A stretch of DNA of 64,000 nucleotides, from contig JAJYIF010000017.1 in NCBI GenBank assembly GCA_021790195.1, positions 1,798 to 65,797 of the forward strand. Reading direction: 5' to 3'. Position numbers and translations under genes: made by a program. Under the pieces are notes generated by a model. It was not told the DNA's origin. It made no database searches and worked only from the letters and a program-made list of their open reading frames with translations. Shown in pieces: positions 17,981 to 36,536 of this stretch (positions within the stretch are counted from its first letter, which is position 1; each line of letters opens with the position of its first letter). Source of the stretch: Nitrospirota bacterium. GTDB lineage: Bacteria; Nitrospirota; Thermodesulfovibrionia; Thermodesulfovibrionales; UBA9159.

Positions 17981-18076
17981 ATTTCTATATGTGACAAGTG
18001 ATGAATGACAGATAACAGGTTTTCGAAATAATTCTTATCTTTCAATCTCGTTACTAAATAGCTTATGACTTTCTTT

Positions 18077-18195: not shown

Positions 18196-18380
18196 CCCTC
18201 GAACAATGCCGCTAAGTTCAGCCCTGCAGACAGTTCGAGGCCGAAGAATATATTAGCATATCTTCTCATAGTTTTTCCGTCACCTGAACCGGCTTGATTA
18301 GACACCCGGAAGATATTTTTTAGACTTCATCCAATAGTTCTCGGCAACCATAAGCGTAAAATTAAATGCGCTACTTTCTT

Positions 18381-19115
18381 CTATGTGTGTCTAAGATTAA
18401 TAATTTTCCTGAACAGGTAATTAGGGTTCTTCATTACTAATTTATAGTTTCGGTTGCGTTCTATCTCCTTCATAAGTCTTGTCAAACCGAAATAATCCAT
18501 ATCGGATGAGTCATCAAATAGCACGTACCCGCCTGGTTCTATATACCGGTCTACGTTTTCGAAGTCCCTCTTGGCAAACTCATACGTGTGATTGCCATCT
18601 ATATAACAAAAACTGATCTTTCCCCCCAATGTAATATTCCTGCCAAAGATGTCATGTGTTGTTTCACCTTTTTCCCATAAGATAAAAAATTCATCGGATG
18701 TGCTTTCTATAGTGTAAGGTTTGTTATCTGGAGAAAAGAACTCCACATTCCTCACAAAAGCCGCCTTAACAAATTCACGGTATTTGGCGTGCGAGATTTG
18801 GCTGCTGCCAAGATTACCCCCCTTTTCAGCTCCTTCAAAAAGCCATTTGTCACAACTGATAATTCTGTTAGTTTTTCCGCGAGATGACAGCAAATAACTG
18901 ATCACATTGATAGAGAGACCACACAAGCTGCCGATTTCAAGCACAGGGGATGCTGACGGAAGATTTTCTATGGCAAGACTCATAGAGTAAATGTTTCCGC
19001 TGTTCAACATACCTGCATTGGCACGGGTAAGCCATTTTATGTACTCGTCGGATATATATTTAGTGTTCATGTATTGTAAGCCAGCATGGAACAATCTCTT
19101 AAGCCTTGGAATCAT
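18381..19115 (-). CDS. Class I SAM-dependent methyltransferase (Methyltransf_24-like)
   Basis: 244 aa. Motif I-like VLEIGSLCGLS, plus later CYIDGNHTYE and GGYVLFDD. The gene is visibly AT-richer than its surroundings. Confidence 0.6.
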   Translation of the reverse strand: MIPRLKRLFHAGLQYMNTKYISDEYIKWLTRANAGMLNSGNIYSMSLAIENLPSASPVLEIGSLCGLSINVISYLLSSRGKTNRIISCDKWLFEGAEKGGNLGSSQISHAKYREFVKAAFVRNVEFFSPDNKPYTIESTSDEFFILWEKGETTHDIFGRNITLGGKISFCYIDGNHTYEFAKRDFENVDRYIEPGGYVLFDDSSDMDYFGLTRLMKEIERNRNYKLVMKNPNYLFRKIINLRHT

Positions 19116-19172
19116 TTTTATCTCCCGTTCTGTTAACCAAACACTTGCCTTAAATCATATTCCCCATAAGTC

Positions 19173-19206
19173 CTGATTCCCCCCTCGCTTCGCTCGGCGG
19201 GAATGC
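19173..19206. repeat. Degenerate copy of the GATTCC...GGAATG hairpin repeat family
   Basis: ctgattcccccctcgcttcgctcggcgggaatgc has stem attccc/gggaat and the same ctgGATTCC...GGAATGc frame as the repeats at 45568, 45895 and 53218. Confidence 0.45.
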
Positions 19207-19236
19207 GGCGCTGAGCAGTGGTGCCGCATTAGTCGC

Positions 19237-20328
19237 TTACTCCTGAGCATTCATAAAACGATTTAAAAATGCAAGTTTCTTTTCCTCCTTAATGCTTACA
19301 TCTAAACAACGAATGTCATTGCGAGGAACTCTTTTGCCTCGCCACATACTTACGAATTTCTCTATCCGAGAAAAATTATTGATTATATTGTCGGGATCAT
19401 TTCCAATCTGCAACAGAAAAGGCGCTCCCTCCGGAAAATCCATGTCCTGATACCCTACTATCGTTGGTAGCCCGTAAGCAAGATATTCTCGAACCTTTAA
19501 GGGAGACGATTCTTTCTTGCCGATAAGATAAAGGGAGAGAGGTCCTATGGCTACGTCGGCTTGTGCAAGAAGCAATTCATATTGGGACTGGTTCAAAAAA
19601 CCATGAAAAAAAACGTTTCTGGGTGAGCCCCTGAAATCTGCTGGATCAGGGCCGATCAAGTCAAATCTCCATGTCTTAAGACGATGAGCGAGCCACAAAA
19701 TCTTATCAATTCCGTGCCAGGGTTGGTTAGGTGAACCCATGAAAATGAGTATAGGGTCAAAATTGCGTGGGGCGTCAAGCTGGCGAAAACGTTTTAAGTC
19801 GATACCATTACCGATCGCAATATATGGCTTGCCGAACCTTGCAAGATGTGGAAGTTTAGCCAGCTGATGAGATTCAAGAATGAGACCCTTGCTATTGAGA
19901 AAAATGTATCGCCTTGTAAGATAATTGTACCAGCGCCTAAAGCGGTTTCCCATACGGAATTCTGCAATATCATCAGAATTTATCTCCACGAACACTGGAA
20001 TTTTTTTTGAAAGATGTCTAAAAGCGGGATGATAGAGATCATACCGATAATAAACAATGCTCGGCAGGTAATCAACTACACTAGCGAAAAGCTGAGAAAG
20101 TCGCCTTGATCGCTTAGCGATCCCCTCATATTCATAAACAAATGTGGGGATTCCCGCTGCTCTATCAATGAACGACTTAGCCAACCCTGTCTGTGTCAAT
20201 ATAAAAAAAGCAACCTTGTTACCATGATTGATCCATTGGTGGGATTGATCCATAATTTTTTTGAATACACCGCTTTCCGGTCCGTCAATTAAGTGGAAAA
20301 TATACGCTATTAGCATAACCCCCTGCAC
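19237..20328 (-). CDS. GT-B fold glycosyltransferase (GT4-like)
   Basis: 363 aa. The C-terminal half carries the retaining-GT pattern ...ESSPLKVREYLAYGLPTIV.... AT-rich relative to the flanks. Confidence 0.6.
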   Translation of the reverse strand: MQGVMLIAYIFHLIDGPESGVFKKIMDQSHQWINHGNKVAFFILTQTGLAKSFIDRAAGIPTFVYEYEGIAKRSRRLSQLFASVVDYLPSIVYYRYDLYHPAFRHLSKKIPVFVEINSDDIAEFRMGNRFRRWYNYLTRRYIFLNSKGLILESHQLAKLPHLARFGKPYIAIGNGIDLKRFRQLDAPRNFDPILIFMGSPNQPWHGIDKILWLAHRLKTWRFDLIGPDPADFRGSPRNVFFHGFLNQSQYELLLAQADVAIGPLSLYLIGKKESSPLKVREYLAYGLPTIVGYQDMDFPEGAPFLLQIGNDPDNIINNFSRIEKFVSMWRGKRVPRNDIRCLDVSIKEEKKLAFLNRFMNAQE

Positions 20329-21101: not shown

Positions 21102-22919
21102 TTAAGGCGCTAATATACTGCCGGACTGAAGGATTGTCCCCCAATCTCCCACAGCTACAAAGGTGCCGTTGCCGTAAGTTACACTGCGAAGTGTCTCGGT
21201 AGTCGCGGAAGGCTGCACTGTCCATGTTTTTCCATCGCGGGACGCAAGTATCGTGCCGCCCCCTACAGCCACAAAAGTGCCGTCGCCGTAGGTCGCTCCA
21301 TAAAGCCCGCCCTCGGTCGTCCCCGACTGAGTTGTCCATGTTGATCCGTCAGGAGAAGTAAAAATACCATATTCTCCAACGGCCACAAAAGTGCCGTTGC
21401 CGTAAGTCACTCCTGCGAGATAACTAATCCCCGCCGGGGAGTGGGCTGTCCATGTTGTTCCATCAGTAGACGTGAGGATCTTATCATAGCTTCCAACACC
21501 CACAAAAGCGCCGCTACCGTAAGTAACGCTGACGAGGTGAGCACCGCCCGACGATTGGGTTGACCAGGTCCTTACATTAGTAGACGTGAGGATTGTGCCA
21601 ACGCCTCCTCCGACAGCCACAAAAACACCATTACCGCAAACCACTCCTGCGAGTGAATCGGAACTTCCAGAGGCTTGAGCTGCCCATGTCTTTGCATCTG
21701 AGGAAGTGAGTATCGTCCCGGAGCTTCCCACGGCCACAAATGTACCGTCACCATACGTCACGCCAAAAAGGTCTTCCACAGTTCCTGAGATTTGAACCGA
21801 CCATGTCTTTCCATCGGGAGACGTAAGTAGCGTGCCACCTGCTCCTACAGCTACGAAAGTGCCATTGCCATAAGCCACGCCATATAAGAAATTAGTGGTC
21901 CCCAACGGGGCTATCCATGTCTTCCCATCAGGAGAGGTAAGGATCGTGCCATGTTCTCCCACAGCCACAAAGATGCCGTTGCCATAGGTCACTCCAGTCA
22001 GAGCAGCGGCAGCCCCGGACGATTGAGTCGTCCACGTCTTTCCATCGGGAGATGTGATCATGCAGCTCTTTCCCGATTCTCCAAATGTTTCCCCCACAGC
22101 AACAAAAGTGCCATTGCCATAGGCCACGCCGGAGAGATAATCAGAACCTCCCATGGATTGCTCTGTCCACGTCTTTCCATCGGGAGATGTAACTATTAGG
22201 CCATGGTACAAGTATCCTACAGCTACGAAAGTGCCGTTGCCATAGGTCACGTCAGAGAGCTGACTGACTCCTGACGATTGTGTGGCCCATGTCTTTCCAT
22301 CTGGAGAAGTGAGGACCACACCATGTTCTCCCACGGCTACAAAAGTGCCGTTGCCATAGGTCACTGACAAAAAGTGGTCGGTACTGCCCGATGACTGGAC
22401 CGTCCAGGTCTTTCCATCGGGAGAAGTGAGAATCGTGTAGTGTACTTCCATCTCCCCGGTCGTACCCCCGACAGCCACAAAAGTGCCGTCAGCGTATGCT
22501 ACCCCAGAGAGTGTTTCGCTAATGCCGGAAGATCGCCCTGTCCACGCGCTTCCATCAGGAGAAGTGAGGATCGCACCGAGTGATCCCACCGCTACAAAAA
22601 TGCCATTGCCATAGGTCACCTTATAGAGATTGACTGCGGTAGTCCCGGATTGCAGTGACCAGCTCTTTCCATCGGGAGACGTAAGAATTGTACTGGCATC
22701 TCCCACAGCCACGAACGTACCGTTGCCATAGGTCACGCCATTGAGAGTGTTTCCCTGACGGGCAGGATCACCCAAAGTCCAACTATAGAGAGCCGATGTC
22801 ACTGGTGGCGTCGGTTGGGCAGTGGTCTCGTTGCCCCCTCCGCCTCCACAACTTACCACAAAAAAGGATATGCAGACATATATTATGAGAGTGAATATCG
22901 ACCTATCACGCTTTTTCAT
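21102..22919 (-). CDS. Lipoprotein built from ~14 tandem Asp-box (BNR-like) beta-propeller repeats
   Basis: 605 aa. Signal peptide plus lipobox (FFVVSC GGGGG). Then 13 full repeats of ~40-42 aa with consensus (V)TYGNGTFVAVG..GTILTSPDGKTWT.QSSG, where SxDxGxTW is the Asp-box, plus one terminal partial repeat. Confidence 0.8.
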   Translation of the reverse strand: MKKRDRSIFTLIIYVCISFFVVSCGGGGGNETTAQPTPPVTSALYSWTLGDPARQGNTLNGVTYGNGTFVAVGDASTILTSPDGKSWSLQSGTTAVNLYKVTYGNGIFVAVGSLGAILTSPDGSAWTGRSSGISETLSGVAYADGTFVAVGGTTGEMEVHYTILTSPDGKTWTVQSSGSTDHFLSVTYGNGTFVAVGEHGVVLTSPDGKTWATQSSGVSQLSDVTYGNGTFVAVGYLYHGLIVTSPDGKTWTEQSMGGSDYLSGVAYGNGTFVAVGETFGESGKSCMITSPDGKTWTTQSSGAAAALTGVTYGNGIFVAVGEHGTILTSPDGKTWIAPLGTTNFLYGVAYGNGTFVAVGAGGTLLTSPDGKTWSVQISGTVEDLFGVTYGDGTFVAVGSSGTILTSSDAKTWAAQASGSSDSLAGVVCGNGVFVAVGGGVGTILTSTNVRTWSTQSSGGAHLVSVTYGSGAFVGVGSYDKILTSTDGTTWTAHSPAGISYLAGVTYGNGTFVAVGEYGIFTSPDGSTWTTQSGTTEGGLYGATYGDGTFVAVGGGTILASRDGKTWTVQPSATTETLRSVTYGNGTFVAVGDWGTILQSGSILAP

Positions 22920-23039
22920 ATTTTTCCTCCAATAGATAGAAAGATGCTGAAGCGCGGACTACCCTGTTTGACATATGCAGTTTCATATTATCCCCTCATG
23001 CCAATTATGCCTGATGATACAGTTCGGAAACGATAAAGT

Positions 23040-23061
23040 AAATACCCTTGGCGGGGTATTT
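23040..23061 (-). terminator. Hairpin downstream of cca (probable intrinsic terminator)
   Basis: aaataccc ttggcg gggtattt forms an 8-bp stem with A/T-rich flanks on both sides, 28 nt after the cca stop. Confidence 0.35.
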
Positions 23062-23088
23062 TTGGGGTACATTCGACATTATCGCGAG

Positions 23089-24273
23089 TTACGGAATCTT
23101 ATCATTTGCCCGACTCGACAGCCACCTTATAGCGTCATTTTCATTTCTGAGCTTTCCCAGAAATTGCATCTTCCTCACTTCTCTCAACAGGGAGCCGAGT
23201 TCGGGACCCGCGCCAACTCCCGTTATCTCCATGATCTTCCCGGCGGACAGGAGGCCTTTCATAGCAAGGAACCTTCGCGCTTCTCTTACGAATCCCTTTC
23301 TCCGTGTCAACAGGGCAAAATCCATGGCGCCCTCCCCGGCCGCAGCTAACAGATCATACAACTTCGTTCTATTTATTCTTCTATTCTTTTCATACACACT
23401 CAACAAGGGACCAATGACATTTAATCTATTGAGAGAGGCCCTGCTCAGTCTCAAGAGGTTCTTCCCTGCAGTTGAGCCACTAAGAAGCTGCTCGGCCCTC
23501 AGCAGACCGATATGTGAGAGCCCTTGTGAGAACTCGTCTCCAAAAGAGATCGGCAGGCCCTCTCTCCTCTTCTCAATAAAAGAGTCGAGCCTTGAGAGCT
23601 TACGTATGTTATCGCCCAACCTGGCCGCATCCAGTGATATAATCTCACCCAACAGACCGTCGGCAGCGGCCATCTTCACCGCCTTCACGCAATAGCGGGA
23701 GTTCAACAGTCTGATCGATTCCGAAGTTGTTCTTTCAAGGGCCGGGAGTTTGATCGATCCCGCAAGCTCCTTCACTATCTTTCTCGTCTTACCCTCAATC
23801 CTCCAGCCCAGCTCCCCCGCAAAACGATACGCCCTGAGAAGCCTCAGAGGATCGTTGACAAAGTTGCTTTCGCAGATCGCCCTGATCCTCTGCTTCACAA
23901 TATCTTCTCGCCCCTTCAGCGGGTCGATGATCCCCCGCCCAGCCGACCAGGCTACGGCGTTCATAGTAAAATCCCGTCCGGACAGGTCGTCTTCAAGGCT
24001 CCCGCGCAATTCCGAGAAGTCCATAGTGTAATCGTCTACGACGACTCTCACCGTCATTGCCTTCTTAAATATGATTACAGTGGCCCGCTCCTCTGGAAAA
24101 ATTTTCGATATGAGTCCCCTCACATCCCCTCTCACTATGAAGTCAATATCCCTCGATCTTGTCCCAATCAAGAGATCCCTGATGAAACCACCGACCAGAA
24201 ACACGTCTGCGCAAGCGTCAAGGACCCCCGCAATCAGCGGGTCGCCGAGGATTGTCTCTCTCATGCCCTCCAT
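23089..24273 (-). CDS. cca: tRNA nucleotidyltransferase / poly(A) polymerase family protein (CCA-adding enzyme-like)
   Basis: 394 aa. Head-domain motifs VGGFIRDLLIG..SRDIDF and RDFTMNA, followed by DPLRLLRAYRFA. Confidence 0.75.
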   Translation of the reverse strand: MEGMRETILGDPLIAGVLDACADVFLVGGFIRDLLIGTRSRDIDFIVRGDVRGLISKIFPEERATVIIFKKAMTVRVVVDDYTMDFSELRGSLEDDLSGRDFTMNAVAWSAGRGIIDPLKGREDIVKQRIRAICESNFVNDPLRLLRAYRFAGELGWRIEGKTRKIVKELAGSIKLPALERTTSESIRLLNSRYCVKAVKMAAADGLLGEIISLDAARLGDNIRKLSRLDSFIEKRREGLPISFGDEFSQGLSHIGLLRAEQLLSGSTAGKNLLRLSRASLNRLNVIGPLLSVYEKNRRINRTKLYDLLAAAGEGAMDFALLTRRKGFVREARRFLAMKGLLSAGKIMEITGVGAGPELGSLLREVRKMQFLGKLRNENDAIRWLSSRANDKIP

Positions 24274-24407
24274 AACTCATATTATGTTGATGTCTTTGGC
24301 CTTAATCAACAGATTTCCTCCAAAACTTATTCCTCTTTGTCATCTATTAATGAATGAATTATGTTACAATCTATTGCCATGTTCACCGTCTGCAGGGAGG
24401 AACAATA

Positions 24408-25175
24408 ATGAAGATCAAGGTGCTGGGCTGTTCCGGCGCTGAATTCCCGGGACACAATACGCCCGGTTTTCTTCTTGACGATGAGATCTTGCTGGACGCC
24501 GGAAGCCTCACGAATGTTCTTAATGGAAACAGGCAATGGAAGATAAAGAACATCTTCATTACCCACGCCCACCTGGACCATATAAAAGGCATCCCTTTTC
24601 TTGCAGATAACCTGATTATGAGGAACCAAGGCCATAAGGTAACCATAGCGGGCATTGCCCGCGTTATCGACACAATCAAGAAAAACCTTCTCAACGGCTA
24701 CCTCTGGCCCGATTTCACGATAATTCCGGACCCTAAGAGCGGCGTATTGAGATTCACGCGTTTGCGTGAAGGGCTCCCGGTCCAGGTCAACGGTTATTCT
24801 GTCACGCCCTTCAGAGTAAATCATTCGGTCCCCGCAACGGGATACCTTGTTGAAGACAACGCGGGCAGGACTCTTTTCTACACAGGCGATACAGGCCCTA
24901 CGCGATCAACCTGGCAAAAGATCGGCGACAGGAAAATCAACTGTCTGATAATAGAGTCTTCTTTCCCTGACAAGATGCGCGCCACCGCTATGGCCACCGG
25001 CCATCTCACCGCGTCCCTGATGAAGGAAGAAATATCCAGGATTGAAAAGATGCCCGAAAAGATATATGTCACTCACACCAAGCCGCAGTATTTCAAGACG
25101 ATCCGGGCCGAGGTCTCGGCGCTCGGGCTGAAGAACCTGAGACTCCTGCGGGACGGCGAAGTGATCAGAGTGTAA
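24408..25175 (+). CDS. MBL-fold hydrolase resembling class II 3',5'-cyclic-nucleotide phosphodiesterase
   Basis: The tracked ORF starts at 24354. I prefer ATG 24408 (MKIKVLGCSG...), preceded by GGGAGG. The motif ITHAHLDHIKGIPFLAD matches the class-II PDE signature HxHLDH.... Confidence 0.5.
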   Translation: MKIKVLGCSGAEFPGHNTPGFLLDDEILLDAGSLTNVLNGNRQWKIKNIFITHAHLDHIKGIPFLADNLIMRNQGHKVTIAGIARVIDTIKKNLLNGYLWPDFTIIPDPKSGVLRFTRLREGLPVQVNGYSVTPFRVNHSVPATGYLVEDNAGRTLFYTGDTGPTRSTWQKIGDRKINCLIIESSFPDKMRATAMATGHLTASLMKEEISRIEKMPEKIYVTHTKPQYFKTIRAEVSALGLKNLRLLRDGEVIRV

Positions 25176-25243
25176 AGAAGACCATGTCTGTAAGAGCCGC
25201 AATGCGGTATTCTGATAAAATTTGGAGGGGCCTGATTCTCTTC

Positions 25244-25271
25244 TTGACAAACGCTCGGGACCATATATAAG
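25244..25271 (+). promoter_or_regulatory. Candidate sigma70-type promoter for the TPR/barrel-FecR operon
   Basis: TTGACA (25244-25249), a 16-nt spacer, then TATAAG (25266-25271). The ATG at 25282 is only ~11 nt downstream with no Shine-Dalgarno, which implies a very short leader or none. Confidence 0.3.
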
Positions 25272-25281
25272 GTATTAATCA

Positions 25282-26592
25282 ATGCATATAAGAGCAAAGA
25301 TATTATTTATCGCATCGCTTATGGCTTTCTTTCTTTGTTTTTTCCCATCGGGTTCCCGCGCCTCCGAAGCGTCCTATGAAAAACATCTTGCAAAGGGCGT
25401 AGCAGGCCTCGACGCAAACGATTTCGGTGCTGCCGTAAGAGAATTCAAGGCGGCGCTCAATGAGAAACCGGATGATGCCGTGGCGACGCTTTATCTCGGA
25501 ATTGTCCTTAGCCGCTCCGGCGATAAGGATGCCGGAGCAGTCCTAAGGAAGGCCCTCTCAATGCGGCCCTCTGATCCTCGCGCGAACCTCGAACTCGGCG
25601 TATATGATTTTGATGTGATGCTATATACGCAGGCCCGAGAATATTTTGAAAGCGCGGCAAGGCTCGCACCAGGCACCGAAATCTCTGCGACGGCGGAAGA
25701 GTATCTCGAACGCATGAAGCAACGCGGCATTGCCCGCCGCTGGTCGCTGGACTTATCCTTGGGAGGCCAGTACGACAGCAATGTAATATTGAATCCGGAT
25801 GTCGGCCCCCTGCCCCAGGGCATCTCCGGAAAATCGGACTGGAGGGCGGTGGCATATCTGAGAGGCAGATACACGATTTTTGCGAGCAACAGTGTGGAAA
25901 GTTCGGTGGGCTATAACCTTTACCAGAGCCTCCATGCGAAACTGTCGGATTTCAACGTTTCGCAGCATGTCTTTGACTTGTCCACGACATATCGCATTAC
26001 CCCTGTGCTTCGCCTGAGGGGCATCTACTCCTTCGAATACGTCCTTGTAGGCGGGAACGGGTATGACTTCGCCCATATGCTCGCGCCGGCCCTCGTCTTT
26101 GACGAGGGCAAGGGCTTCTCCTCGACAATTGAATACAGGTACAGGAAGGAGCATTTCATGAACGCGAGCTTCTTTACCGACAACTCGGACAGGACAGGCT
26201 CTGATAATCTGATAGAGATAAGCCAGGTCGTTCCGCTTCATAGGACCGTCCTTGCCCGCGCTGCCTATTCCTATGACGTTGACTCTACCGAAAAGGACTT
26301 CTGGCATTACAACGGCAACAGGGTAGCGGCCGGACTGACCGTAACGCTCCCCTGGAGGATGTTGATGAACGCAGACGGGGAATACTATAATAAGAACTAC
26401 GAGGGCATAAGTCCGCTGTCGGGCAGCAGAAGAAAGGACGACATTTATACCGCATCCTTATCGCTCACAAAAGCCTTGGATGACAGATACAGCGTTACAG
26501 CGGGCCAGATATACGTGAGGAATAAATCAAACATAAGCGATTTTGATTACAAGCGCAACATTACAAGTCTCTTTCTTAACGCGAGGTTTTAG
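25282..26592 (+). CDS. Signal-peptide protein with N-terminal TPR repeats and a C-terminal outer-membrane beta-barrel (DUF560/Slam-like architecture)
   Basis: 436 aa. Signal peptide, then TPR-like helices (AVREFKAALNEKPDDAVATLYLGIVL...). After that comes alternating amphipathic beta-strand sequence rich in Y/G/S, ending in ...SLFLNARF (terminal aromatic typical of OMPs). Confidence 0.55.
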   Translation: MHIRAKILFIASLMAFFLCFFPSGSRASEASYEKHLAKGVAGLDANDFGAAVREFKAALNEKPDDAVATLYLGIVLSRSGDKDAGAVLRKALSMRPSDPRANLELGVYDFDVMLYTQAREYFESAARLAPGTEISATAEEYLERMKQRGIARRWSLDLSLGGQYDSNVILNPDVGPLPQGISGKSDWRAVAYLRGRYTIFASNSVESSVGYNLYQSLHAKLSDFNVSQHVFDLSTTYRITPVLRLRGIYSFEYVLVGGNGYDFAHMLAPALVFDEGKGFSSTIEYRYRKEHFMNASFFTDNSDRTGSDNLIEISQVVPLHRTVLARAAYSYDVDSTEKDFWHYNGNRVAAGLTVTLPWRMLMNADGEYYNKNYEGISPLSGSRRKDDIYTASLSLTKALDDRYSVTAGQIYVRNKSNISDFDYKRNITSLFLNARF

Positions 26593-27435
26593 ATGAGGTT
26601 CCGCCGGAAGCTTTCAATGTTTTTAATTATACTTGTCGCTTTTTTCTCCTCATCCGCTGTTGTTTCCGCGGCAAACGAGGTAGGAACCGTCATTGCTCTC
26701 CGGGGAAAGGCCGTGATCCATAGAGACAAGAAAGACATTCATGCCCGTTTGAGGGATGGCCTGTTGCTTTCGGACGCCGTTTCTACTCTTGAGGCCTCCA
26801 GGGCCAAGATGCTCTTCAGAGACGACAGCGTTCTGACCATGGGTGAAAAATCCAGCGTTTTGATCAAGGAGTTTCTGTCCGCAGGCCAAAAGAAGGGCAG
26901 ATCGATCTTCAACCTCGTCGACGGCAAGATGAAGGCTGTCGTCGGGGGAGGTCAATTTGAAGTCCATACGCCTACGGCTGTAGCGGCTGCCCGGGGAACC
27001 GTGATCTACTTCTCCGTGGAGACGGTGAAGGGGAGACAATGCACCACTATATTCACTTCTGAAGGGACAGTCATTGCCAGGAGTTCTTCCAAGAAGATCA
27101 AGGGCAGCATAACTCTGACCAGAGACCTTGTCGCGACCATATGTCTGGGTGAACCCCTTCCCAAGCCGGTTGCAATATCTCCGTTGGAAAAGGAATCACT
27201 GATCAAGGATACCGATATTACGGGATATGAAATATCTATGCCGGTTCCTGCCGGGACAGGAATGGGAGCAGGGGCCGCTGTCTCAACAGCTGGTACCCCT
27301 CCTGTGAATCAACAGCCGATCACGATATCCGGCGCAACCGTACCTCCGCCCCCTCCACCGCCTCCGCCGCCCCCGCCCATAACGCCACCTTCATCCGGGG
27401 GACATGTTTATTACGGCTTGCCTCGCTACGACTAA
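26593..27435 (+). CDS. Secreted FecR-domain protein with a C-terminal poly-proline tract
   Basis: 280 aa. The start codon abuts the stop of the upstream gene (TAG ATG). Signal peptide, then a FecR-like core (GTVIALRGKAVIHR...LLLSDAVSTLEASRAKMLFRDDSVLTMGEKSSV). 12 consecutive Pro at 27343-27378. Confidence 0.65.
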   Translation: MRFRRKLSMFLIILVAFFSSSAVVSAANEVGTVIALRGKAVIHRDKKDIHARLRDGLLLSDAVSTLEASRAKMLFRDDSVLTMGEKSSVLIKEFLSAGQKKGRSIFNLVDGKMKAVVGGGQFEVHTPTAVAAARGTVIYFSVETVKGRQCTTIFTSEGTVIARSSSKKIKGSITLTRDLVATICLGEPLPKPVAISPLEKESLIKDTDITGYEISMPVPAGTGMGAGAAVSTAGTPPVNQQPITISGATVPPPPPPPPPPPPITPPSSGGHVYYGLPRYD

Positions 27436-27564
27436 GACGCGCGTACAAGTGAAGTTGCCAGCCCTGAAGAGAGAAAGTTGTCGCTGTCGGTAAGAACAGC
27501 GCTCTCCGGGCTTCGGTCTCTTCAAATACGTATTCCGCACTGTTTTCATTTATTTGGCCGACTC

Positions 27565-27572
27565 TGTATAAT
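27565..27572 (+). promoter_or_regulatory. Extended -10 element (TGTATAAT) placed for a leaderless cyclase transcript
   Basis: tgTATAAT at 27565-27572. The ATG of the cyclase gene begins 7 nt after the hexamer (27579), and there is no SD sequence in between. Confidence 0.35.
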
Positions 27573-27578
27573 CCAATT

Positions 27579-29537
27579 ATGAAGAAGACCCTGCTGCTCT
27601 TTTATCTGATCTCCCTGTTATCCACTTCCTTATTCGTTCTCCTGCAGTGGATCAACCCGAAAATAATCGATGAGCAGCTCGAAAGCAAAACGTATGACCT
27701 CAGACTTCGGCTGAGAAATTACTTAAAACAGCAAGCACCCCCGCATGACATCGTTATCGTAGCCGTTGATGAAAAGAGCATCGATGAGATCGGGAGGTGG
27801 CCGTGGAACCGAGGCATTCAGGCGACTCTTATAGATAACATCTCGAAAGACAAGCCTAAGGTCATCGGCATCGATATCATGTATACGGAGAAAGAGAGTC
27901 CGGAGGCGGATGAAAAGCTTGCGTCTGCCATCAAAAAGGCCGGGAATGTGGTCCTCGCCACGAGATTTGACATGCCCGAAGGCAGGAATGTCGCCACCGT
28001 CCCCAAGGACGTCCCGGATTTTCTGTGGGACTCTGCCTTCATGGAGGTCAAGACCGTAAAGGGTATACCCTGGAAGACGTTCGCCCTTAAGCCCGACCGG
28101 GTCAAGCCTTCACTTGCAGAATTCTCGACGGCTGCCACCCTGGGTCATGTTTATACGCATCCGGACCTCGATGGCTGCCTGAGGTCCGAATTCCTTTATC
28201 TTAATTTCGGTGACGACTGCTATCCCCAGTTTGCCCTTCAGATCGCTAGGATTGCCCTCGGTGTCGAGATGAAGAACATGGTCCTCTATGGGGGCTCCGG
28301 CATAGGACTCGGCAACATGTTCATTCCCACTGACCTGCGCGGACGTGTTGTCATTAATTACAGGGGGAAAGACCACAGCTTCCCATACGTTTCCGCCGCT
28401 GATGTAATCAAGGGAAGGACCCCTGCCGGCTCTTTTAGAAACAGGATAGTCCTTATCGGGACTTCCGCAGTGGCCACCTACGACGAGAAGGTCACGCCTT
28501 TTTCGACCAACATGCCGGGTGTCGAGAAGAACGCGAATGTCGTCGATAACATCCTCTCAAACAACTTTATCAGAAGAAGTCCGGGCGTCATCGAGTTGGT
28601 CGTCATCATTATCACCGGAATCCTTTTGGGATTTACCCTGCCCAAACTGAAGGCGCTGTCCAGCGCCCTCCTCGCCGCAGCTCTTCTGGTCCTTTATGTC
28701 GCGGTGAGTTGTTATCTGCTGATCTACCAAAACCTCTGGATAAACTTTCTCTACCCGTTCACGAACATGTTGAGCATATTTTCGATCCAGACGGTCATAA
28801 GGTTTTTTCATGAAGAAAGAAAGGCAAAAGAGATCCGCCAGATGTTTTCGAGTTATGTCTCTCCCAAGATCGTACAGGAGCTGATCGAGAACCCCGAGAA
28901 GGCAAAGCTCGGCGGAGAACGAAGGATCGTGACCGTCCTTTTCTCGGACGTAATGGGCTTTACAACGCTCTCTGAAAGGAAGCAGCCGGAAGAGGTCGTG
29001 TCGCTCCTCAATGAGTACTTCAAAGAGATGGCGGACATAATCTTCAGATGGGACGGCACCCTCGACAAGTTCGTAGGAGACGAGATAATGGCGCTGTGGG
29101 GCGCCCCCCTGGATCAGCCGGATCACGCTGAGCTCGCCTTGAGGTGCGCGCTCAACATGTCGGACAAGCTGGACCAGCTTCAGGAGATGTGGCGCTCAAG
29201 AGGCTCCGATATTTTGGACGTGGGCATAGGCCTCAACACGGGCGAGGTGCTCATCGGCAACATAGGCGCCCAGGGCAAGAAGATGGACTACACCGCGATA
29301 GGAGACCACGTCAATTTGGCCGCCAGGGTGGAGAAGTTGACAAGACAGTATGGGACAAGGATCCTTCTTACAGAGAACACCCGCGAGCACATCGTCGAGG
29401 TGGTCGGAAGAGGCAGATTGGGACACGTTGAACTGAAGGAGCTGGCCTCGGTAAAGGTCAAGGGAAAAGAAAAGGAAGCGAAAATATTCGGCCTCAGGGC
29501 ATTAAAGAGCCCGCAGCGTGCAAAGGGCGTTTCGTGA
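27579..29537 (+). CDS. CHASE2 sensor domain - transmembrane - class III adenylate/guanylate cyclase
   Basis: 652 aa. N-terminal TM, then the periplasmic CHASE2 pattern (VIVAVDEKSIDEIGRWPWNRG...VIGIDIMYTE). Three TM helices follow, then the cyclase core (RRIVTVLFSDVMGFTTLSE...GDEIMALWGAP...GLNTGEVLIGNIG...DYTAIGDHVNLAARVE). Confidence 0.85.
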   Translation: MKKTLLLFYLISLLSTSLFVLLQWINPKIIDEQLESKTYDLRLRLRNYLKQQAPPHDIVIVAVDEKSIDEIGRWPWNRGIQATLIDNISKDKPKVIGIDIMYTEKESPEADEKLASAIKKAGNVVLATRFDMPEGRNVATVPKDVPDFLWDSAFMEVKTVKGIPWKTFALKPDRVKPSLAEFSTAATLGHVYTHPDLDGCLRSEFLYLNFGDDCYPQFALQIARIALGVEMKNMVLYGGSGIGLGNMFIPTDLRGRVVINYRGKDHSFPYVSAADVIKGRTPAGSFRNRIVLIGTSAVATYDEKVTPFSTNMPGVEKNANVVDNILSNNFIRRSPGVIELVVIIITGILLGFTLPKLKALSSALLAAALLVLYVAVSCYLLIYQNLWINFLYPFTNMLSIFSIQTVIRFFHEERKAKEIRQMFSSYVSPKIVQELIENPEKAKLGGERRIVTVLFSDVMGFTTLSERKQPEEVVSLLNEYFKEMADIIFRWDGTLDKFVGDEIMALWGAPLDQPDHAELALRCALNMSDKLDQLQEMWRSRGSDILDVGIGLNTGEVLIGNIGAQGKKMDYTAIGDHVNLAARVEKLTRQYGTRILLTENTREHIVEVVGRGRLGHVELKELASVKVKGKEKEAKIFGLRALKSPQRAKGVS

Positions 29538-29676
29538 AGATGAAGAGGGAGAAGAAACGGTCGCTCGCCTGAGTCGTCACCTTTTCGCCTGCAAAGTGAT
29601 AAAATAGAATGTCCTCACGGGGCAGGTCTTCTGTTCCCTGCGGGGACGTCTCATAAAACTAAGCGAGGGTCTCAAT

Positions 29677-30168
29677 ATGAGCGAAGACACGCCTTCTGTT
29701 ACGCGTGCAACGGAAGTGCTCCGGTCTGCCGGGGTTGCATTTACCAATCATCTCTACACCTCTGATGAAAAAGGCTCTACGGAGGTCTGCGCAAAGCAGC
29801 TCAACATAGACGAGCACGCTATTGTGAAGACAATCATCGTCGAAGCTGACGGGAAACCATACATGGTCCTTATGCACGGGGACATGAGGGCGTCTGCCAA
29901 AGTGCTTGCCGCCGTAATCGGGGCCAAGGCCGTTACACCGTGCCTTTCCGAAAAGGCCGAGGAATACACAGGCTACCAGCCGGGAGGCATCTCGCCCTTC
30001 GGCGCGCGTATGAAGATCCCCGTATGCATGGAAGAGACTATCCTCAATCTCAGGAAGGTCTATATCAATGGCGGAAAGAAAGGCTATTTCGTCGGCATGG
30101 ACCCATACGACGCAGTCAAGATACTCCATCCCGTCCTCGTGAAGGTCGGCTCTGCGCGGGCCGCATGA
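29677..30168 (+). CDS. ybaK: Cys-tRNA(Pro)/Cys-tRNA(Cys) deacylase YbaK/EbsC family
   Basis: 163 aa with YbaK pattern ...VKTIIVEADGKPYMVLMHGD... and TGYQPGGISPFG. Confidence 0.8.
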   Translation: MSEDTPSVTRATEVLRSAGVAFTNHLYTSDEKGSTEVCAKQLNIDEHAIVKTIIVEADGKPYMVLMHGDMRASAKVLAAVIGAKAVTPCLSEKAEEYTGYQPGGISPFGARMKIPVCMEETILNLRKVYINGGKKGYFVGMDPYDAVKILHPVLVKVGSARAA

Positions 30169-30376
30169 GTGGTGCACATTTCTGGGAGTTCCCAGACCGA
30201 AAAGGCCGGCAGCTAATTTCAGACCGGCGAAGAAACTCTCCCTAACAATAACAATTAGAAATGTTAATACCAATATAGCCGCGTTGATTAGACCTCTCGA
30301 GTGTGATAGATTCATATACTCCGGACGTTCAATGGGGCGTCTCCGACAACCAAGTCTGCCGGAAGGAGGTAGAGAG

Positions 30377-30787
30377 ATGACGCTTAAATATCTGCTGCAA
30401 TCGAAGCCTTCGAAGATGATCACCTGCAAGACGACATGCCTGGTTGCGGACGCCGTTACTGTTATGGACGGCCACAATGTGGGTTCGATACTGATACTTG
30501 ACGATGACGAAAAACTTGTCGGCATCTTCACAGAGCGCGACATCATGCACTGCTTTGCGAAGAACATATCCTTCAGGGACGTCACTATGGACAAGATCAT
30601 GACGCCAAACCCGATAACGTTTGATTCGTCGACGGAGATCAGTCATGCGATCACGGTCATGTCGGAAAAGAAGATCAGACACCTCCCGGTGACGGAGGGC
30701 GGAAAGATCGCAGGCATAGTCTCTTACAGGGACCTGGTTTCGTACTTGCTGCCTCAGGTCATCTTCGCTTCGGAGGACATCTTTTAG
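30377..30787 (+). CDS. CBS-pair domain protein
   Basis: The tracked ORF starts at 30284. I prefer ATG 30377, preceded by GGAAGGAGG. Two CBS repeats (VGSILILDDDEKLVGIFTERDI; IRHLPVTEGGKIAGIVSYRDL). Confidence 0.75.
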   Translation: MTLKYLLQSKPSKMITCKTTCLVADAVTVMDGHNVGSILILDDDEKLVGIFTERDIMHCFAKNISFRDVTMDKIMTPNPITFDSSTEISHAITVMSEKKIRHLPVTEGGKIAGIVSYRDLVSYLLPQVIFASEDIF

Positions 30788-31004
30788 CAGGTTGAGGCTC
30801 AATTTTTTCGTTCCGATTGATTGAGTCAAACCCGCTGTGTTAAATTAAATATAAGCGGTTTTTGGGGGGCCGTGGGGAAAGAACGAGAGCGCTTAGGGAC
30901 CGAATTGGAATATAGCCTGTCTTCCGTGCTTCGGACTTTCCATCCCCGTGGTTCAAGAGAGTTCAAGAACGAGTAACTATAATGATATGCTTGAGGAAAA
31001 AGAC

Positions 31005-31484
31005 ATGAACGATGTCCTCGACAGGATAATAGCCAAATACAGGGAAGACGAGGGCAACGTCATATTCCTCCTCCAGGAGACGCAGGACGCCCTTGGATAT
31101 ATCCCCGAAGAGGCCGTCGCGTATTTTTCTAAGAAACTCGATATCCCGTCGAGCCGTTTCTACGGCGTCTTGACCTTCTATTCCCAGTTCCACCTGAAAC
31201 CCAGGGGCAAGAACATTCTTTCGGTCTGCTGCGGCACGGCATGCCATGTCAAGGGCGGGACAAAGATAGCCGAGCGGATACAGAGGGACCTGGGTCTTGC
31301 GTCGGACGGCGAGACGACAGAGGACGGTAAGTTCACCTTCGAGATCGTCCGTTGTGTCGGCGCCTGCAGCATAGCCCCCGTGGTCCTTGTCAATAACAAG
31401 GCCCATGCCGAGATGTCGGCGGACAGCGCATCGAAGCTCGTCACGGAATTAAAGAAGAAGGAGACCGGCGTTGGCGCAAAGTGA
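31005..31484 (+). CDS. NuoE/HndA-like [2Fe-2S] thioredoxin-fold subunit of an NAD(P)-linked formate dehydrogenase
   Basis: Cys motif ...SVCCGTACHVKG...VRCVGACSIAP.... Start chosen at ATG 31005 (GAGGA 7 nt upstream); alternative starts are at 30987 and 30948. Confidence 0.8.
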   Translation: MNDVLDRIIAKYREDEGNVIFLLQETQDALGYIPEEAVAYFSKKLDIPSSRFYGVLTFYSQFHLKPRGKNILSVCCGTACHVKGGTKIAERIQRDLGLASDGETTEDGKFTFEIVRCVGACSIAPVVLVNNKAHAEMSADSASKLVTELKKKETGVGAK

Positions 31485-33267
31485 TGAGACCAAGAAAAAG
31501 GTAGTCGTCAGGGTATGCATAGGCACCGGCGGACTTGCAGCCGGGGGCAAAGAGGTAATCGAGGCCTTTAAGAAGGCGATCAGCGATTTTTGCGTAGATA
31601 TCGAGCTTGATTTCACCTGCCATTACCAGAAGGTCGGATGCCGCGGCTTCTGCGCCAGGGACGTGCTTGTGGACGTGGTCGACGGCGACACGAGCGTCAC
31701 ATATCAGGGGATAAAGCCCGACATTGCAAAAAGGATAGTCCAGGAGCACCTCATAAACGGCCAGCCTGTGAAAGAGTGGCTCATCGATGATTCTTACTAC
31801 TCCTTCCATTCCAAGCAGATGAAGGTGCTCCTGAAGGACTGCGGCACTATCGATCCCGAGGACATCCAGGCATATAGCAAAGTGGGAGGATATACAGGCA
31901 TAAGAAAGATCCTCTCCACAATGACGCCCGAGGATGTGATAGCCGAGATAAAGGCATCAGGCATACGCGGCAGGGGCGGGGCCGGCTTTCCTACCGGAGT
32001 AAAATGGGAGGCATGCCGCAAGGCGCAGGGCGACGTTAAATATATCGTATGCAATGCCGATGAAGGCGACCCCGGGGCGTTCATGGACAGGTCGATAATT
32101 GAAGGTAATCCCCATTCGGTCATTGAAGGCATGATGATCGCCGCATACGCCATCGGCGCCGGACTCGGATATGTTTACATCAGGGCGGAGTATCCTGCGG
32201 CAGTGGAAAGACTGAAGCTCGCGATTGCACAGGCCCACGAAACCGGACATCTCGGCAAAGGACTTTTCGGCTCGGACTTCAGTTTCGATCTTCGGATAAA
32301 ACTCGGCGCGGGCGCATTTGTCTGCGGCGAAGAGACGGCCCTTATCGCATCCATTGAGGGAGAGAGAGGCATGCCGAGGGCGAAGCCGCCCTTCCCCGTT
32401 CACAGAGGTCTGTGGGGGAGACCCACAGTCATCAATAACGTCGAGACGCTCTCGAATATTCCCTACATCATAAGAAACGGCGCTTCCTGGTATTCCTCCA
32501 TCGGCACCGATAAGAGCAAGGGGACTAAGGTCTTTGCATTGACCGGCAAGATCAGGAACACCGGTCTGATAGAGGTACCTATGGGCATAAGGCTGGGCGA
32601 GATCATCTATGATATCGGCGGCGGCATCATAGGCGATAAGAAGTTCAAGGCGGTCCAGCTCGGCGGGCCTTCGGGGGGCTGCATTCCCGATCACCTTCTC
32701 GACACCCCGGTCACGTACGAAGACATTGTGCGAACCGGAGCAATCGTGGGCTCAGGGGGGATGGTGGTTCTTGATGAGACGGACTGTATGGTGAATATCG
32801 CCAAGTTCTTCCTCGAGTTCACTCAGGCTGAATCGTGCGGCAAGTGCGTTCCCTGCAGGATCGGCACCAAGAGGCTGCTCGAAATACTCGACAGGATCAC
32901 AAGGGGTCTCGGCAAGGAGGGCGACATCGAACTCCTCGAAGCCCTCTGCTCGGATATCAAGGTGGCGTCCCTTTGCGGGCTAGGGCAAACGGCCCCGAAT
33001 CCCGTCCTCAGCACCCTCAAGTACTTTCGCCATGAATATGAGGCCCATATTAAAGACAAGAAATGTCCGGCGAAGGCGTGCAAAGACCTTCTGATTTACA
33101 GTATCCTTGAAGACATATGCAAGGGCTGCGGGGTCTGCAAGCGGGCATGCCCTGCGGGTGCGATCTCGGGAGACAAGAAGAAGCCTCACAAGATTAATGC
33201 CGACCTCTGCATCAGGTGCGGGGCCTGCTTCGATGTATGCAAATTCAATTCTGTCAACAGGGAATAG
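31471..33267 (+). CDS. NuoF-like flavoprotein subunit (FMN/NAD-binding, [4Fe-4S]) with N-terminal thioredoxin-like and C-terminal 2x[4Fe-4S] extensions
   Basis: 598 aa. TTG start overlapping the upstream stop. Motifs GRGGAGFPTG, CNADEGDPGAF, GAGAFVCGEETALIASIEG, ESCGKCVPCR, and C-terminal CKGCGVCKRACP / CIRCGACFDVC. Confidence 0.85.
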   Translation: MAQSDETKKKVVVRVCIGTGGLAAGGKEVIEAFKKAISDFCVDIELDFTCHYQKVGCRGFCARDVLVDVVDGDTSVTYQGIKPDIAKRIVQEHLINGQPVKEWLIDDSYYSFHSKQMKVLLKDCGTIDPEDIQAYSKVGGYTGIRKILSTMTPEDVIAEIKASGIRGRGGAGFPTGVKWEACRKAQGDVKYIVCNADEGDPGAFMDRSIIEGNPHSVIEGMMIAAYAIGAGLGYVYIRAEYPAAVERLKLAIAQAHETGHLGKGLFGSDFSFDLRIKLGAGAFVCGEETALIASIEGERGMPRAKPPFPVHRGLWGRPTVINNVETLSNIPYIIRNGASWYSSIGTDKSKGTKVFALTGKIRNTGLIEVPMGIRLGEIIYDIGGGIIGDKKFKAVQLGGPSGGCIPDHLLDTPVTYEDIVRTGAIVGSGGMVVLDETDCMVNIAKFFLEFTQAESCGKCVPCRIGTKRLLEILDRITRGLGKEGDIELLEALCSDIKVASLCGLGQTAPNPVLSTLKYFRHEYEAHIKDKKCPAKACKDLLIYSILEDICKGCGVCKRACPAGAISGDKKKPHKINADLCIRCGACFDVCKFNSVNRE

Positions 33268-33302
33268 GAAGAAACGGACAAAGAGATGAACCGGGGTGAC
33301 CG

Positions 33303-35969
33303 ATGATAAAGCTGATGATAGACGGCAAGACGCTATCTGTCCCGGACGGGACGACGGTATTGGATGCTGCAAGAAGATTTCACATAAATATACCTACGCT
33401 CTGCCATCATCCGAAACTTACCCCTTTCGGCGGATGCAGGCTCTGCCTGGTCGAGATCAAGGGGATTCCGAGGCCCGTGACATCCTGCACGACCCCGGCC
33501 GCCGAAGGCATGGAGGTGACGACTACAAGTCCGAACCTCGAAAGTCTCAGGAAGACCGTGCTTGAGCTGATCCTGTCGGACCATCCCAACGATTGCATGA
33601 TATGCGAGAGGGCGGGAGATTGCACCCTCCAGGAGCTTGCTTATTTCTATGGGATAAGGAAGAACAGGTTCTCAGGTGAGAGAAGGACATACTCAAAGAG
33701 AGACGGCAACCCTTTCATAGAAAGGGACATGGAGAAATGCATCCTTTGCGGAAGATGCGTTAAGGTCTGCGACGAGGTCGAAGGCGTAGCAGCAATTGAT
33801 TTCGCGTACAGAGGATTTAAGTCCAAGATCTGTCCCCCATACGAGAAGGACCTTAATTGCGAGTTCTGCGGCCAATGCGTTGCCGTATGTCCGACAGGCG
33901 CGCTCACGGGCAAGGCATGGAAGCAGAGGGGAAGACAGAAAGACGTCAGAGAGGTGGATACGACCTGTGCTTACTGCGGCTGCGGCTGCAGTCTCACCCT
34001 CCATGTGCAGGGCAACGAGGTGATAAGGGTCACGTCGAGGGAAGACACCCTCAACGAGGGGTGGCTGTGTGTAAAAGGAAGGTTCGGCTACAACTTCATA
34101 AACAGTCCGGAGAGACTGAAGAAACCCCTGATCAGGAAAGACGGGAAGCTCGAGGAAGCCTCCTGGGAGACCGCCCTCGATTATGTCGCAGGCAGATTGA
34201 AAGACGTACGCGATAAATATGGGCCCAACGCCATAGCAGGCCTTTCGTCGGCGCGCTGCACGAACGAGGAGAATTACCTCTTTCAGAAGTTCATCAGGGG
34301 CGTAATAGGAACTAATAACGTAGACCACTGCGCACGTTACTGACACAGCGCTACGGTGGCCGGTCTGGCCACGGTCTTCGGCTCCGGGGCGATGACGAAC
34401 TCGATGCCCGAGATAGAGAACAACGACCTCCTCTTCGTTATCGGCTCGAACACTACCGAAACTCACCCTATCATAGGCCTGAAGATGAAGAAGGCCTTCA
34501 GAAAAGGCGCGAAGCTCATCGTTGCAGATCCGAGGAAGATAGACCTTGTAAGGTTTGCCGACTTATGGCTCAGACAGAGGCCAGGAACGGACGTGGCCCT
34601 TCTCAACTCCATCATGCACGTCATCCTCCGTGAGGGTCTCGAAGACACTGAGTTCATCAATACGTGGACGGACGATTTTGAGTCCTTCAGGGGTTCGCTT
34701 GCTGAATTCACCCCCGAGACAGGCGAAAGGATCACGGGAGTTCCCAAGGAAAAGATAATCCAGGCGGCCCTTCTTTACGGAAACGCCGAGCGCCCCGGCA
34801 TCTATTACACCATGGGGATAACGCAACATACCCACGGCACAGAGAACGTGTACGCTATAGCAAACCTCGCTCTTATGACCGGTAACCTCGGCAAGGAAAG
34901 CACCGGCGTAAATCCTCTCAGGGGACAGAACAATGTCCAGGGCGCGACGGACATGGGCTGCACGCCCAACATGTACCCGGGGTACCAAAGGGTCGATGTC
35001 CCGGCAGTCAAAGAGAAGTTTGAGCGCGAGTGGAACGTGAGGCTTTCCGAGAAAGTAGGCCTCACGGCTACGGAGATGCTCCAGGCCATAACAAACGGCT
35101 CGCTTAAGGCAATGTATATAATGGGAGAGAATCCGGTCCTGAGCGATCCGGACATGGGCCATACGATAAAGGCGCTGAAAGAACTCGATCTTCTTGTCGT
35201 GCAGGACATTTTCATGACCGAGACGGCCGAGCTTGCCGACGTGGTGCTGCCTGCCGCCTCCTTTGCCGAAAAGGACGGCACCTTCACCAACACCGAAAGA
35301 AGGGTCCAGCGCGTGAGAAGGGCCGTGAATTCTCCGGGAGAAGCAAAGAGGGATTCGGCTATTATCGCAGAGCTCAGCAGACTCTTCGGCTACGATATGA
35401 CGTACCATTCCGATGAGGCGGTCTTCCGGGAGATCGGCAGACTCTGGCCCGCCACGGCAGGCATAAGTTACAGGCGCATAAGAAAGATAGGCGTTCAATG
35501 GCCCTGCCCCACCCCGGACCATCCCGGAACGCAGTATCTTTTCAAAGGCGGTTTTCCAAGAGGAAAAGGGAGATTCACGGCGGTGAGCTACAGGCCCTCC
35601 GCAGAAGTCCCTGATAACGAGTATCCTTATATTCTCTCAACAGGAAGACAGCTGTTCCAGTACCATACCGGAACGATGACGAGAAAGACGTCTGCTATAG
35701 AGACAGTGGCCCCCGGGCCCTATGTCGAGATGAACGACGAAGACGCGCAGGGTCTTGCCGTAGAGGACGGCCAGAAAGTGAGAGTCTCTTCCCGCAGGGG
35801 CAGCATCGAGGTCAGCGCCCATGTTTCCGAAAAGACCTTGAGAGGCATGGTCTTCATTCCTTTCCATTTTAAGGAAGCGGCCGCAAATGTCCTGACGAAT
35901 CCCGCAACCGATCCGGTCTGCAGCATTCCTGAATTCAAGGTCTGCGCGGTCAAGATAGAGTCTTTGTAG
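33303..35969 (+). CDS. fdhA: Selenocysteine-containing formate dehydrogenase alpha subunit; one 888-residue CDS read through in-frame UGA at 34341-34343
   Basis: Tracked ORFs 33303..34343 and 34356..35969 are in the same frame (offset 1053 = 351x3). Across the junction the sequence reads [32 protein letters not shown]. The Cys-type paralog in this window (40426..42516) has [30 protein letters not shown] at the same place. The N-terminus has NuoG-like 2Fe-2S/4Fe-4S Cys motifs. Confidence 0.9.
34344..34375 (+). promoter_or_regulatory. Bacterial SECIS hairpin directing Sec insertion at the fdhA UGA
   Basis: UGA CAC AGC GCU ACG, then a perfect stem GUGGCC (34356-34361) / GGCCAC (34367-34372) around loop GGUCU. 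Counting the U of UGA as +1, positions +23/+24 are G and U. From memory, this mirrors the GGUC apical loop and spacing of the E. coli fdhF SECIS. Confidence 0.8.
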
Positions 35970-36523: not shown

Positions 36524-36536
36524 GCAAGCATATAGC

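Follow-up and report, generated by a model that had tools for sequence, protein, structure and literature searches.

CHASE2 sensors occur widely, in cyclases as well as in kinases and diguanylate cyclases, and to our knowledge no signal has been identified for CHASE2 since the domain was first defined. Several described systems place CHASE2 receptors beside FecR-domain proteins or outer-membrane barrels, and they are compared here with a four-gene cluster, encoding a cyclic-nucleotide phosphodiesterase (PDE), an outer-membrane TPR-barrel protein, a secreted FecR-fold protein and a CHASE2 adenylate cyclase, which is located in 64,000 nucleotides of DNA from a Nitrospirota bacterium (GenBank assembly GCA_021790195.1, contig JAJYIF010000017.1, positions 1,798 to 65,797 of the forward strand; hereafter the window). 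The window is a new member, from a Nitrospirota-like mine-drainage genome, of an already published gene cluster, and it therefore adds little by itself.

In the Campylobacterota, CHASE2 adenylate cyclases are mostly clustered with a cAMP phosphodiesterase, a FecR-domain protein and a TPR protein (PMC9239204, mBio 2022). The authors of that study concluded that all four genes are probably part of a single pathway and that horizontal transfer has carried the cluster between phyla, and their Fig. 4B proposes components of the extracytoplasmic function (ECF) type that interact with the cAMP enzymes (PMC9239204). In Burkholderiales and P. aeruginosa, LysM-FecR genes are found directly upstream of CHASE2 histidine kinases (PMC5192318). 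According to two reports on S. meliloti, activation of the CHASE2 cyclases CyaK and CyaD1/CyaD2 requires the outer-membrane barrel NsrA, and Clr serves as the cAMP receptor (PMC7529298, PMC13001267).

The cluster and its conservation

The features of the window that are discussed below are the following:

24408-25175, plus strand: predicted cytoplasmic PDE of the metallo-beta-lactamase fold, class II-like, 255 amino acids, with an HAHLDH motif (PF02112, E 7.6e-17)
25244-25272, plus strand: promoter-like TTGACA-N16-TATAAG upstream of the barrel gene (consensus match only, read from the sequence)
25282-26592, plus strand: predicted outer-membrane protein with a signal peptide, a periplasmic TPR region (residues ~30-148), a 14-stranded beta-barrel (154-436) and the C-terminus NARF; Slam-like (structure model, Foldseek)
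26593-27435, plus strand: predicted secreted FecR-fold protein with a signal peptide (residues 1-27), a beta domain (29-184), a helix (197-207) and a disordered Pro-rich tail (PF04773, structure model, Foldseek)
27343-27378, plus strand: 12 proline codons in the tail of the FecR-like protein, residues 251-262 (translation, alignment, tail survey)
27579-29537, plus strand: predicted inner-membrane receptor adenylate cyclase with a transmembrane segment, a periplasmic CHASE2 domain, a transmembrane block and a class IIIb catalytic domain (CHASE2 1.1e-62, Guanylate_cyc 8.2e-26)
36068-36523, plus strand: stand-alone cyclic nucleoside monophosphate (cNMP)-binding protein, 151 amino acids, candidate cAMP receptor (PF00027, E 5.6e-21)

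A preliminary description of this DNA, made from its letters and a list of open reading frames (ORFs), had placed four ORFs with these domains on one strand, and an ORF check and Pfam matches bear out the coordinates, the strand and the domain calls. According to both, the PDE, TPR, FecR-domain and CHASE2 cyclase genes of the window are all adjacent to each other. The junction at which the start codon of the FecR-like gene was said to abut the stop codon of the barrel gene indeed reads AGG TTT TAG ATG, and the barrel and FecR genes are predicted to be a translationally coupled pair upstream of the CHASE2 class IIIb cyclase.

The gene neighbourhood was surveyed from two sides: a CHASE2-only profile, with one genome per species, yielded 80 loci from Nitrospirota, Geobacteraceae/Desulfuromonadales, Deferribacteres and others, and a reverse scan of metagenomes collected loci anchored on the FecR-like gene. 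Among the 36 CHASE2 loci with at least 9 kb of upstream sequence, 30 contain a FecR-like gene and 29 a barrel gene, always upstream and co-oriented, so that the proposed enrichment of both genes beside CHASE2 cyclases holds across genomes. The nearest FecR gene lies upstream and on the same strand as the CHASE2 gene in 46 out of 46 cases, at a distance of at most 260 bp in 19 loci, 0.9-4.3 kb in 26 and around 9 kb in one; in the Geobacteraceae loci, the two genes overlap or abut (-4 to +6 bp). A barrel gene is located directly 5' of FecR in 40/41 CHASE2-anchored loci, the exception being a frameshifted barrel, and in 38/39 FecR-anchored loci (78/80 in total), with gaps that are mostly between -4 and +5 bp.

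The gene order of the window is repeated in two loci (L007 and L012), and two others contain the same genes with extra genes inserted (L005 and L070). Linkage of the barrel-FecR pair with CHASE2 is found across most CHASE2 clades, and CHASE2 cyclases also lie downstream of more distant FecR-like genes (L147, L148, L160). Two barrel-FecR pairs per locus occur in tandem in L046, L081 and L137 and in convergent orientation in L094. In L046 and L081, both pairs are located upstream of a single CHASE2 cyclase, an arrangement that fits several inputs and one output. The cluster has cultured carriers, e.g., Geomesophilobacter sediminis Red875 (locus L029). Taken together, the four-gene arrangement is far beyond chance and recurs in dozens of species. 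Good support for a functional tie of barrel-FecR to the CHASE2 cyclase comes from their gene order, which is conserved, oriented and often overlapping. The four genes make up a conserved cluster, and this cluster probably connects the cell envelope with cAMP.

Input or output of the cyclase

On sequence grounds, the favoured reading, to which we give a probability of roughly 0.45, is that of a conserved envelope-to-cAMP module whose FecR-fold partner, anchored in the outer membrane, modulates CHASE2 as its input. Alternatively, barrel-FecR, together with the lipoprotein that often follows it, could be an envelope or surface module that acts downstream of cAMP and is kept beside the cyclase for co-regulation, without passing a signal into CHASE2.

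A number of observations weigh against an input role, and several of them speak for the output role. The FecR-domain gene smc02177 of S. meliloti is induced by cAMP/Clr and belongs to the same regulon as the NsrA-cyclase-Clr cascade; it is required for infection control, a downstream phenotype, and its mutation has no effect on how the signal for activation of the CHASE2 cyclases is perceived (PMC5498481). Furthermore, 17 FecR-anchored loci have at least 6 kb of downstream sequence; a CHASE2 cyclase is present in ten of them, and the other 7/17 have the unit but no CHASE2 gene nearby. Downstream of the unit, these seven loci carry either the GspC/D/E genes of type II secretion or trpBA together with genes for a GAF-HD protein and the same PDE. 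In three loci that lack a CHASE2 gene (L110:13025-17667, L117 and L120), barrel, FecR and lipoprotein genes are followed by GspC, the secretin GspD and the ATPase GspE, and a subtilase gene precedes them in L110. Among the CHASE2 loci, a coherent clade of cyclases (L040-L044) and scattered further loci have no barrel-FecR pair within ~5.4-10 kb upstream. Finally, 143 bp lie between FecR and the cyclase in the window, the cyclase gene has a promoter-like site of its own, and the barrel-FecR pair is likewise preceded by its own promoter-like element. The latter, TTGACA-N16-TATAAG, is a consensus match only and was not reported by a stricter promoter scan; the promoter and terminator scan of the window gave no significant difference from shuffled sequence.

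The regulation expected of an output module was looked for upstream of the genes themselves. A de novo search upstream of 71 barrel, 85 CHASE2 and 17 PDE genes detected no conserved palindrome or CRP-box, which speaks against the output role, and CRP-like sites upstream of barrel genes are at most marginally frequent (10/71, versus a shuffled mean of 6.2 and a maximum of 9). Moreover, the kind of placement seen here, strictly 5' of CHASE2, co-oriented and in many cases overlapping, is rather what sensor-accessory pairs typically show. FecR is also paired with CHASE2 in histidine kinases, whose output is not cAMP (PMC5192318). On balance, an output role is considered possible but rather unlikely.

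The outer-membrane TPR-barrel

The product of the ORF at 25282-26592 has a signal peptide, TPR matches and weak C-terminal matches to BBP2_2/EpsL. An AlphaFold model built with 56 homologs has a mean predicted local distance difference test (pLDDT) score of 88.7 and contains TPR helices at residues ~30-148 and 14 strands at 154-435. Foldseek searches of this model against the PDB retrieved the TPR-plus-barrel exporters BcsC and PelBC and the 14-stranded barrels OmpG (TM-score 0.68-0.69), FadL and CymA. The confident model and these matches agree with the earlier assignment of the protein as an outer-membrane beta-barrel. In the model, its architecture is Slam-like, with a TPR domain of ~120 amino acids and 14 strands; a Slam-type N-terminal periplasmic TPR domain (~140 amino acids) is represented by the helices at ~30-148 and by the TPR matches in Pfam.

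The assignment to a barrel family is less clear-cut. DUF560 or another barrel model had been named as a domain to look for in this protein; in Pfam, a weak BBP2_2 match was obtained, and PF04575 (SlipAM, DUF560) does not match the window protein at E<=0.01. Across the 56 homologs, all profile matches are weak and comprise BBP2_2 in 28, TPR_Slam in 20 and SlipAM in 16; a distant family member, P0421, sits at the PF04575 cut-off. BBP2_2 fits the family as well as or better than PF04575, with weak matches throughout. An exhaustive search with a barrel-only profile returned 184 clusters (50% identity) at E<=1e-30 and 1102 at E<=1e-10, nearly all of which possess the N-terminal TPR extension. A sequence search of the PDB with the family profile returned generic TPR matches only.

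The FecR-like protein

The FecR-domain ORF (26593-27435) matches FecR PF04773 with an E-value of 1.1e-11 and carries a predicted cleavable signal peptide. In its structure model (pLDDT 83), a beta domain (29-184) is followed by a helix (197-207) and a disordered tail, and the only significant Foldseek matches in the PDB were the PupR CCSSD (6OVK, E 5.6e-6) and the anti-sigma factor BDI_1681. The match to the PupR fold extends over only ~147 columns, and a sequence search of the PDB with the FecR family profile gave no match.

Most FecR-like homologs end in a C-terminal amphipathic strand motif (…QQP…VNINVxFP), as seen in the alignment and the tail survey. The FecR-like protein of the window and a few others have a Pro-rich, Tyr/Gly-rich tail instead. 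The 12-proline stretch that had been noticed in the window protein is present at residues 251-262 (27343-27378) and, judged by the alignment, it is specific to the lineage of the window, where it stands in place of the VNINVxFP strand motif.

Fec-type systems consist of a 22-stranded TonB-dependent transducer with a plug and an STN domain, a FecR protein with a cytoplasmic anti-sigma domain, a transmembrane segment, a periplasmic FecR domain and an STN-like subdomain, and an ECF sigma factor. The cluster had been labelled "Fec-style", and genuine Fec-type signalling would run from a TonB-dependent transducer via a FecR anti-sigma factor to an ECF sigma factor. Apart from a PF04773 match and a fold similar to that of PupR, nothing in the locus points to such a system, and the label could not be upheld. 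The barrel protein has 14 strands, no Pfam matches to TonB_dep_Rec, Plug or STN were found in it, and its model contains no plug. In the FecR-like protein, a cleavable signal peptide replaces the cytoplasmic anti-sigma domain and the transmembrane segment, and neither of these nor an STN-like subdomain was detected in the ORF, the Pfam matches or the model. There is no sigma-70 family gene among the annotated genes at 21102-38390, and what anchors the related loci is a cyclase gene and not one for a sigma factor. The architecture excludes a true Fec-type system and leaves this reading with next to no probability.

The lipoprotein partner and possible export

Where genes are inserted between FecR and CHASE2, the first usually encodes a lipoprotein with a lipobox Cys followed by a Gly-rich linker. 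Such a gene is located directly 3' of FecR in 25/48 genome loci and 33/46 metagenome loci; examples are L001:8770-10452, L062:7948-9891 and L024:7236-9863, besides ~55 other loci. The members of this family share a conserved N-terminus of ~100 residues, for which no Pfam match was found, and a variable C-terminus that is either a DUF5122 propeller, a DUF1565/NosD beta-helix or fn3. The tight unit of the cluster is barrel-FecR, often extended by a variable lipoprotein. An automatic test revealed no significant association between the FecR tail motif and the presence of the lipoprotein (p=0.14); in a post hoc comparison, after manual correction of six regex misses, strand-less FecR tails occurred only in loci without the lipoprotein (0/54 versus 8/33, p=2e-4).

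No lipoprotein of this family is encoded in the window. A different lipoprotein of 605 amino acids, with the lipobox …VVSCGGGGG and 'YGNGTFVAVG…ILTSPDGKTW' beta-propeller blades (DUF6242 and related), is encoded at 21102-22919 on the minus strand, 1.5 kb upstream of the cluster; it was considered as a FecR-associated lipoprotein and rejected, as it is not a member of that family.

The Slam-like architecture also raises the possibility that the barrel moves the FecR-like protein, and in the relatives the lipoprotein, across the outer membrane in a type XI-like manner, so that both would be surface proteins or adhesins with an indirect link to cAMP. Besides the ~120-residue TPR domain and the 14 strands, the weak SlipAM and TPR_Slam matches of 16/56 and 20/56 homologs, and P0421 at the cut-off, are consistent with export. 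The NCBIfam models nearest to the FecR-like protein are Lsa33 and LipL45, which are FecR-domain proteins of Leptospira reported to be surface proteins/adhesins. The frequent position of the lipoprotein gene directly after FecR fits this scheme as well, since partner or cargo genes beside the barrel gene are typical of the type XI secretion system (T11SS) (bioRxiv 10.1101/2020.01.20.912956). However, T11SS cargo is defined by a C-terminal 8-stranded barrel (TbpBBD or lipoprotein C), which is found neither in the FecR-like protein, whose tail is disordered, nor in the lipoproteins. Moreover, the lipoproteins are conserved N-terminally and variable C-terminally, the reverse of T11SS cargo, the barrel protein of the window scores below every SlipAM threshold, and the window has no lipoprotein gene of the family. 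Export is regarded as unlikely, more so than an output role.

Cyclase, phosphodiesterase and cNMP-binding protein

The cyclase has one N-terminal transmembrane segment, followed by CHASE2 and a hydrophobic block at residues 331-388. Its active site is complete (FSD457, K497, D501, T572), the metal-binding Asp residues are kept, and the substrate pair K497/T572 is invariant in 90/90 cyclase homologs. Based on the Lys497/Thr572 pair and the complete catalytic residues, the protein is predicted to be an active class IIIb adenylate cyclase.

The PDE matches PDEase_II with 61.9 bits (cut-off 23.7) and Lactamase_B_2 with an E-value of 1.3e-16. Its nearest solved relative is the yeast class II phosphodiesterase PDE1 (4OJV, E 9e-11), with RNase Z and PhnP ranking behind, and no signal peptide was found in it. 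The start codon at 24408 gives a protein of the same length as the orthologs (768 nt in L006, L007, L012 and L070). The protein thus displays all sequence features of a class II cyclic-nucleotide phosphodiesterase and is predicted to act as such. PDE orthologs are found near the cyclase in 17 dereplicated loci, either upstream, directly downstream or convergent, and this variety of arrangements argues for selection on proximity. An ortholog is present in only 7/38 fully flanked CHASE2 loci. In six loci (L055:5727-7187, L064:4199-5659, L067:8490-9950, L077, L081 and L082), a metallo-beta-lactamase-fold protein of 483-507 amino acids is encoded between the lipoprotein gene and the CHASE2 cyclase, and it may be an alternative phosphodiesterase.

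The stand-alone cNMP-binding protein noted downstream of the cluster at 36068-36523 could be verified by its cNMP_binding match. Orthologs of this protein (E 1e-56 to 1e-71) are encoded directly 3' of the cyclase in L003, L006 and L084, and in L070 the two genes are spaced by ~6 kb, as in the window. Three genes for cNMP-binding domains precede the barrel-FecR array of L137.

A proposed mechanism

For the favoured reading of an envelope-to-cAMP module, the following mechanism can be proposed. The barrel and the FecR-like protein would form a periplasmic complex anchored in the outer membrane. In most relatives, the FecR tail would end in its beta-strand motif and the variable lipoprotein would be the third partner; in the window, a polyproline spacer would take the place of the former, and no lipoprotein would take part. 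Upon an event in the outer membrane or at the cell surface, the FecR-fold domain would touch the periplasmic CHASE2 domain, thereby altering cyclase activity; the phosphodiesterase would reset cAMP, and the small cNMP-binding protein would read it out. Such a route would need neither TonB nor a sigma factor and would have only the FecR fold in common with Fec-type signalling.

If a FecR-fold partner tethered to an outer-membrane barrel is the input, the question of the CHASE2 signal becomes testable, and a new route for trans-envelope information in Gram-negative bacteria would be at hand. The wider proposal is that a Slam-like barrel and a FecR-fold adaptor, with a variable lipoprotein in most relatives, constitute a new TonB- and sigma-independent surface signalling route with CHASE2 as its inner-membrane receiver. 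This proposal is doubtful at present; if it is true, the input of CHASE2, in cyclases here and in kinases elsewhere, would be a protein partner and not a small molecule.

Neighbouring genes

The region between the cyclase and a formate dehydrogenase block (29677-30787, plus strand) encodes a YbaK/aminoacyl-tRNA-editing domain protein and a tandem-CBS protein. The block itself (30948-38390) comprises NuoE/NuoF-like, FdhA and formate-tetrahydrofolate ligase genes, and its FdhA is a selenoprotein candidate. The gene for formate dehydrogenase alpha (33303-35969, plus strand) is listed as two ORFs and forms one frame with an in-frame TGA at 34344-34346 (…NVDHCARY*HSATVAGL…), a position that we take to be the usual selenocysteine position of FdhA; the protein is probably a selenoprotein. 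The G+C content is lower in segments 18001-20000 (0.43) and 44001-54000 (0.46-0.48) than the typical 0.52-0.55 of the window, and these segments may be acquired DNA. No RNA runs containing the window DNA were found; the matching runs are mine-drainage metagenome DNA only.

Comparison with known systems

With FecA-FecR-FecI and PupB-PupR, the cluster shares a FecR-fold periplasmic domain (PupR 6OVK) and the concept of trans-envelope signalling. It differs from FecA-FecR-FecI in having no TonB-dependent transducer, STN domain, anti-sigma domain, transmembrane anchor of the FecR-like protein or ECF sigma factor. The Slam/type XI proteins (DUF560: NilB, Slam1/2, HrpB) resemble the barrel protein of the window, as modelled, in their periplasmic N-terminal TPR domain and the 14 strands of the barrel, and partner genes, including those for lipoproteins, are adjacent in the relatives; the known T11SS members are proteobacterial, unlike the window.

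In S. meliloti, NsrA comprises ~1200 amino acids with the barrel at 600-1200, whereas the TPR-barrel of the window has 436 amino acids. The reader of cAMP is the transcription factor Clr in S. meliloti and, as a candidate, a protein with only a cNMP-binding domain in the window. The LysM-FecR/CHASE2 kinase operons (Burkholderia BiofilmReg, P. aeruginosa) resemble the window in that a secreted FecR-domain gene is located immediately 5' of a CHASE2 receptor. They differ in their output, which consists of a histidine kinase and a response regulator, in the LysM domain on FecR and in the presence of a DUF4136 protein instead of a TPR-barrel gene.

The Campylobacterota cluster contains the same four gene types as the window, as judged by its described gene content, in a different phylum; the window and its relatives are Nitrospirota/Thermodesulfovibrionales-like. 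Its authors named the FecR protein an outer-membrane protein, and the TPR protein was not reported as a barrel (PMC9239204). The idea of an envelope-to-CHASE2 connection is therefore not new, as the PMC9239204 cluster, FecR-CHASE2 kinase operons and a barrel-to-CHASE2-cyclase pathway have all been published. What the present comparison adds is the identification of the TPR protein as a 14-stranded, Slam-like barrel, the translational coupling of barrel and FecR, the frequent lipoprotein partner and the two types of FecR tail. It further shows that some barrel-FecR units have no CHASE2 gene next to them and that cultured carriers of the cluster exist.

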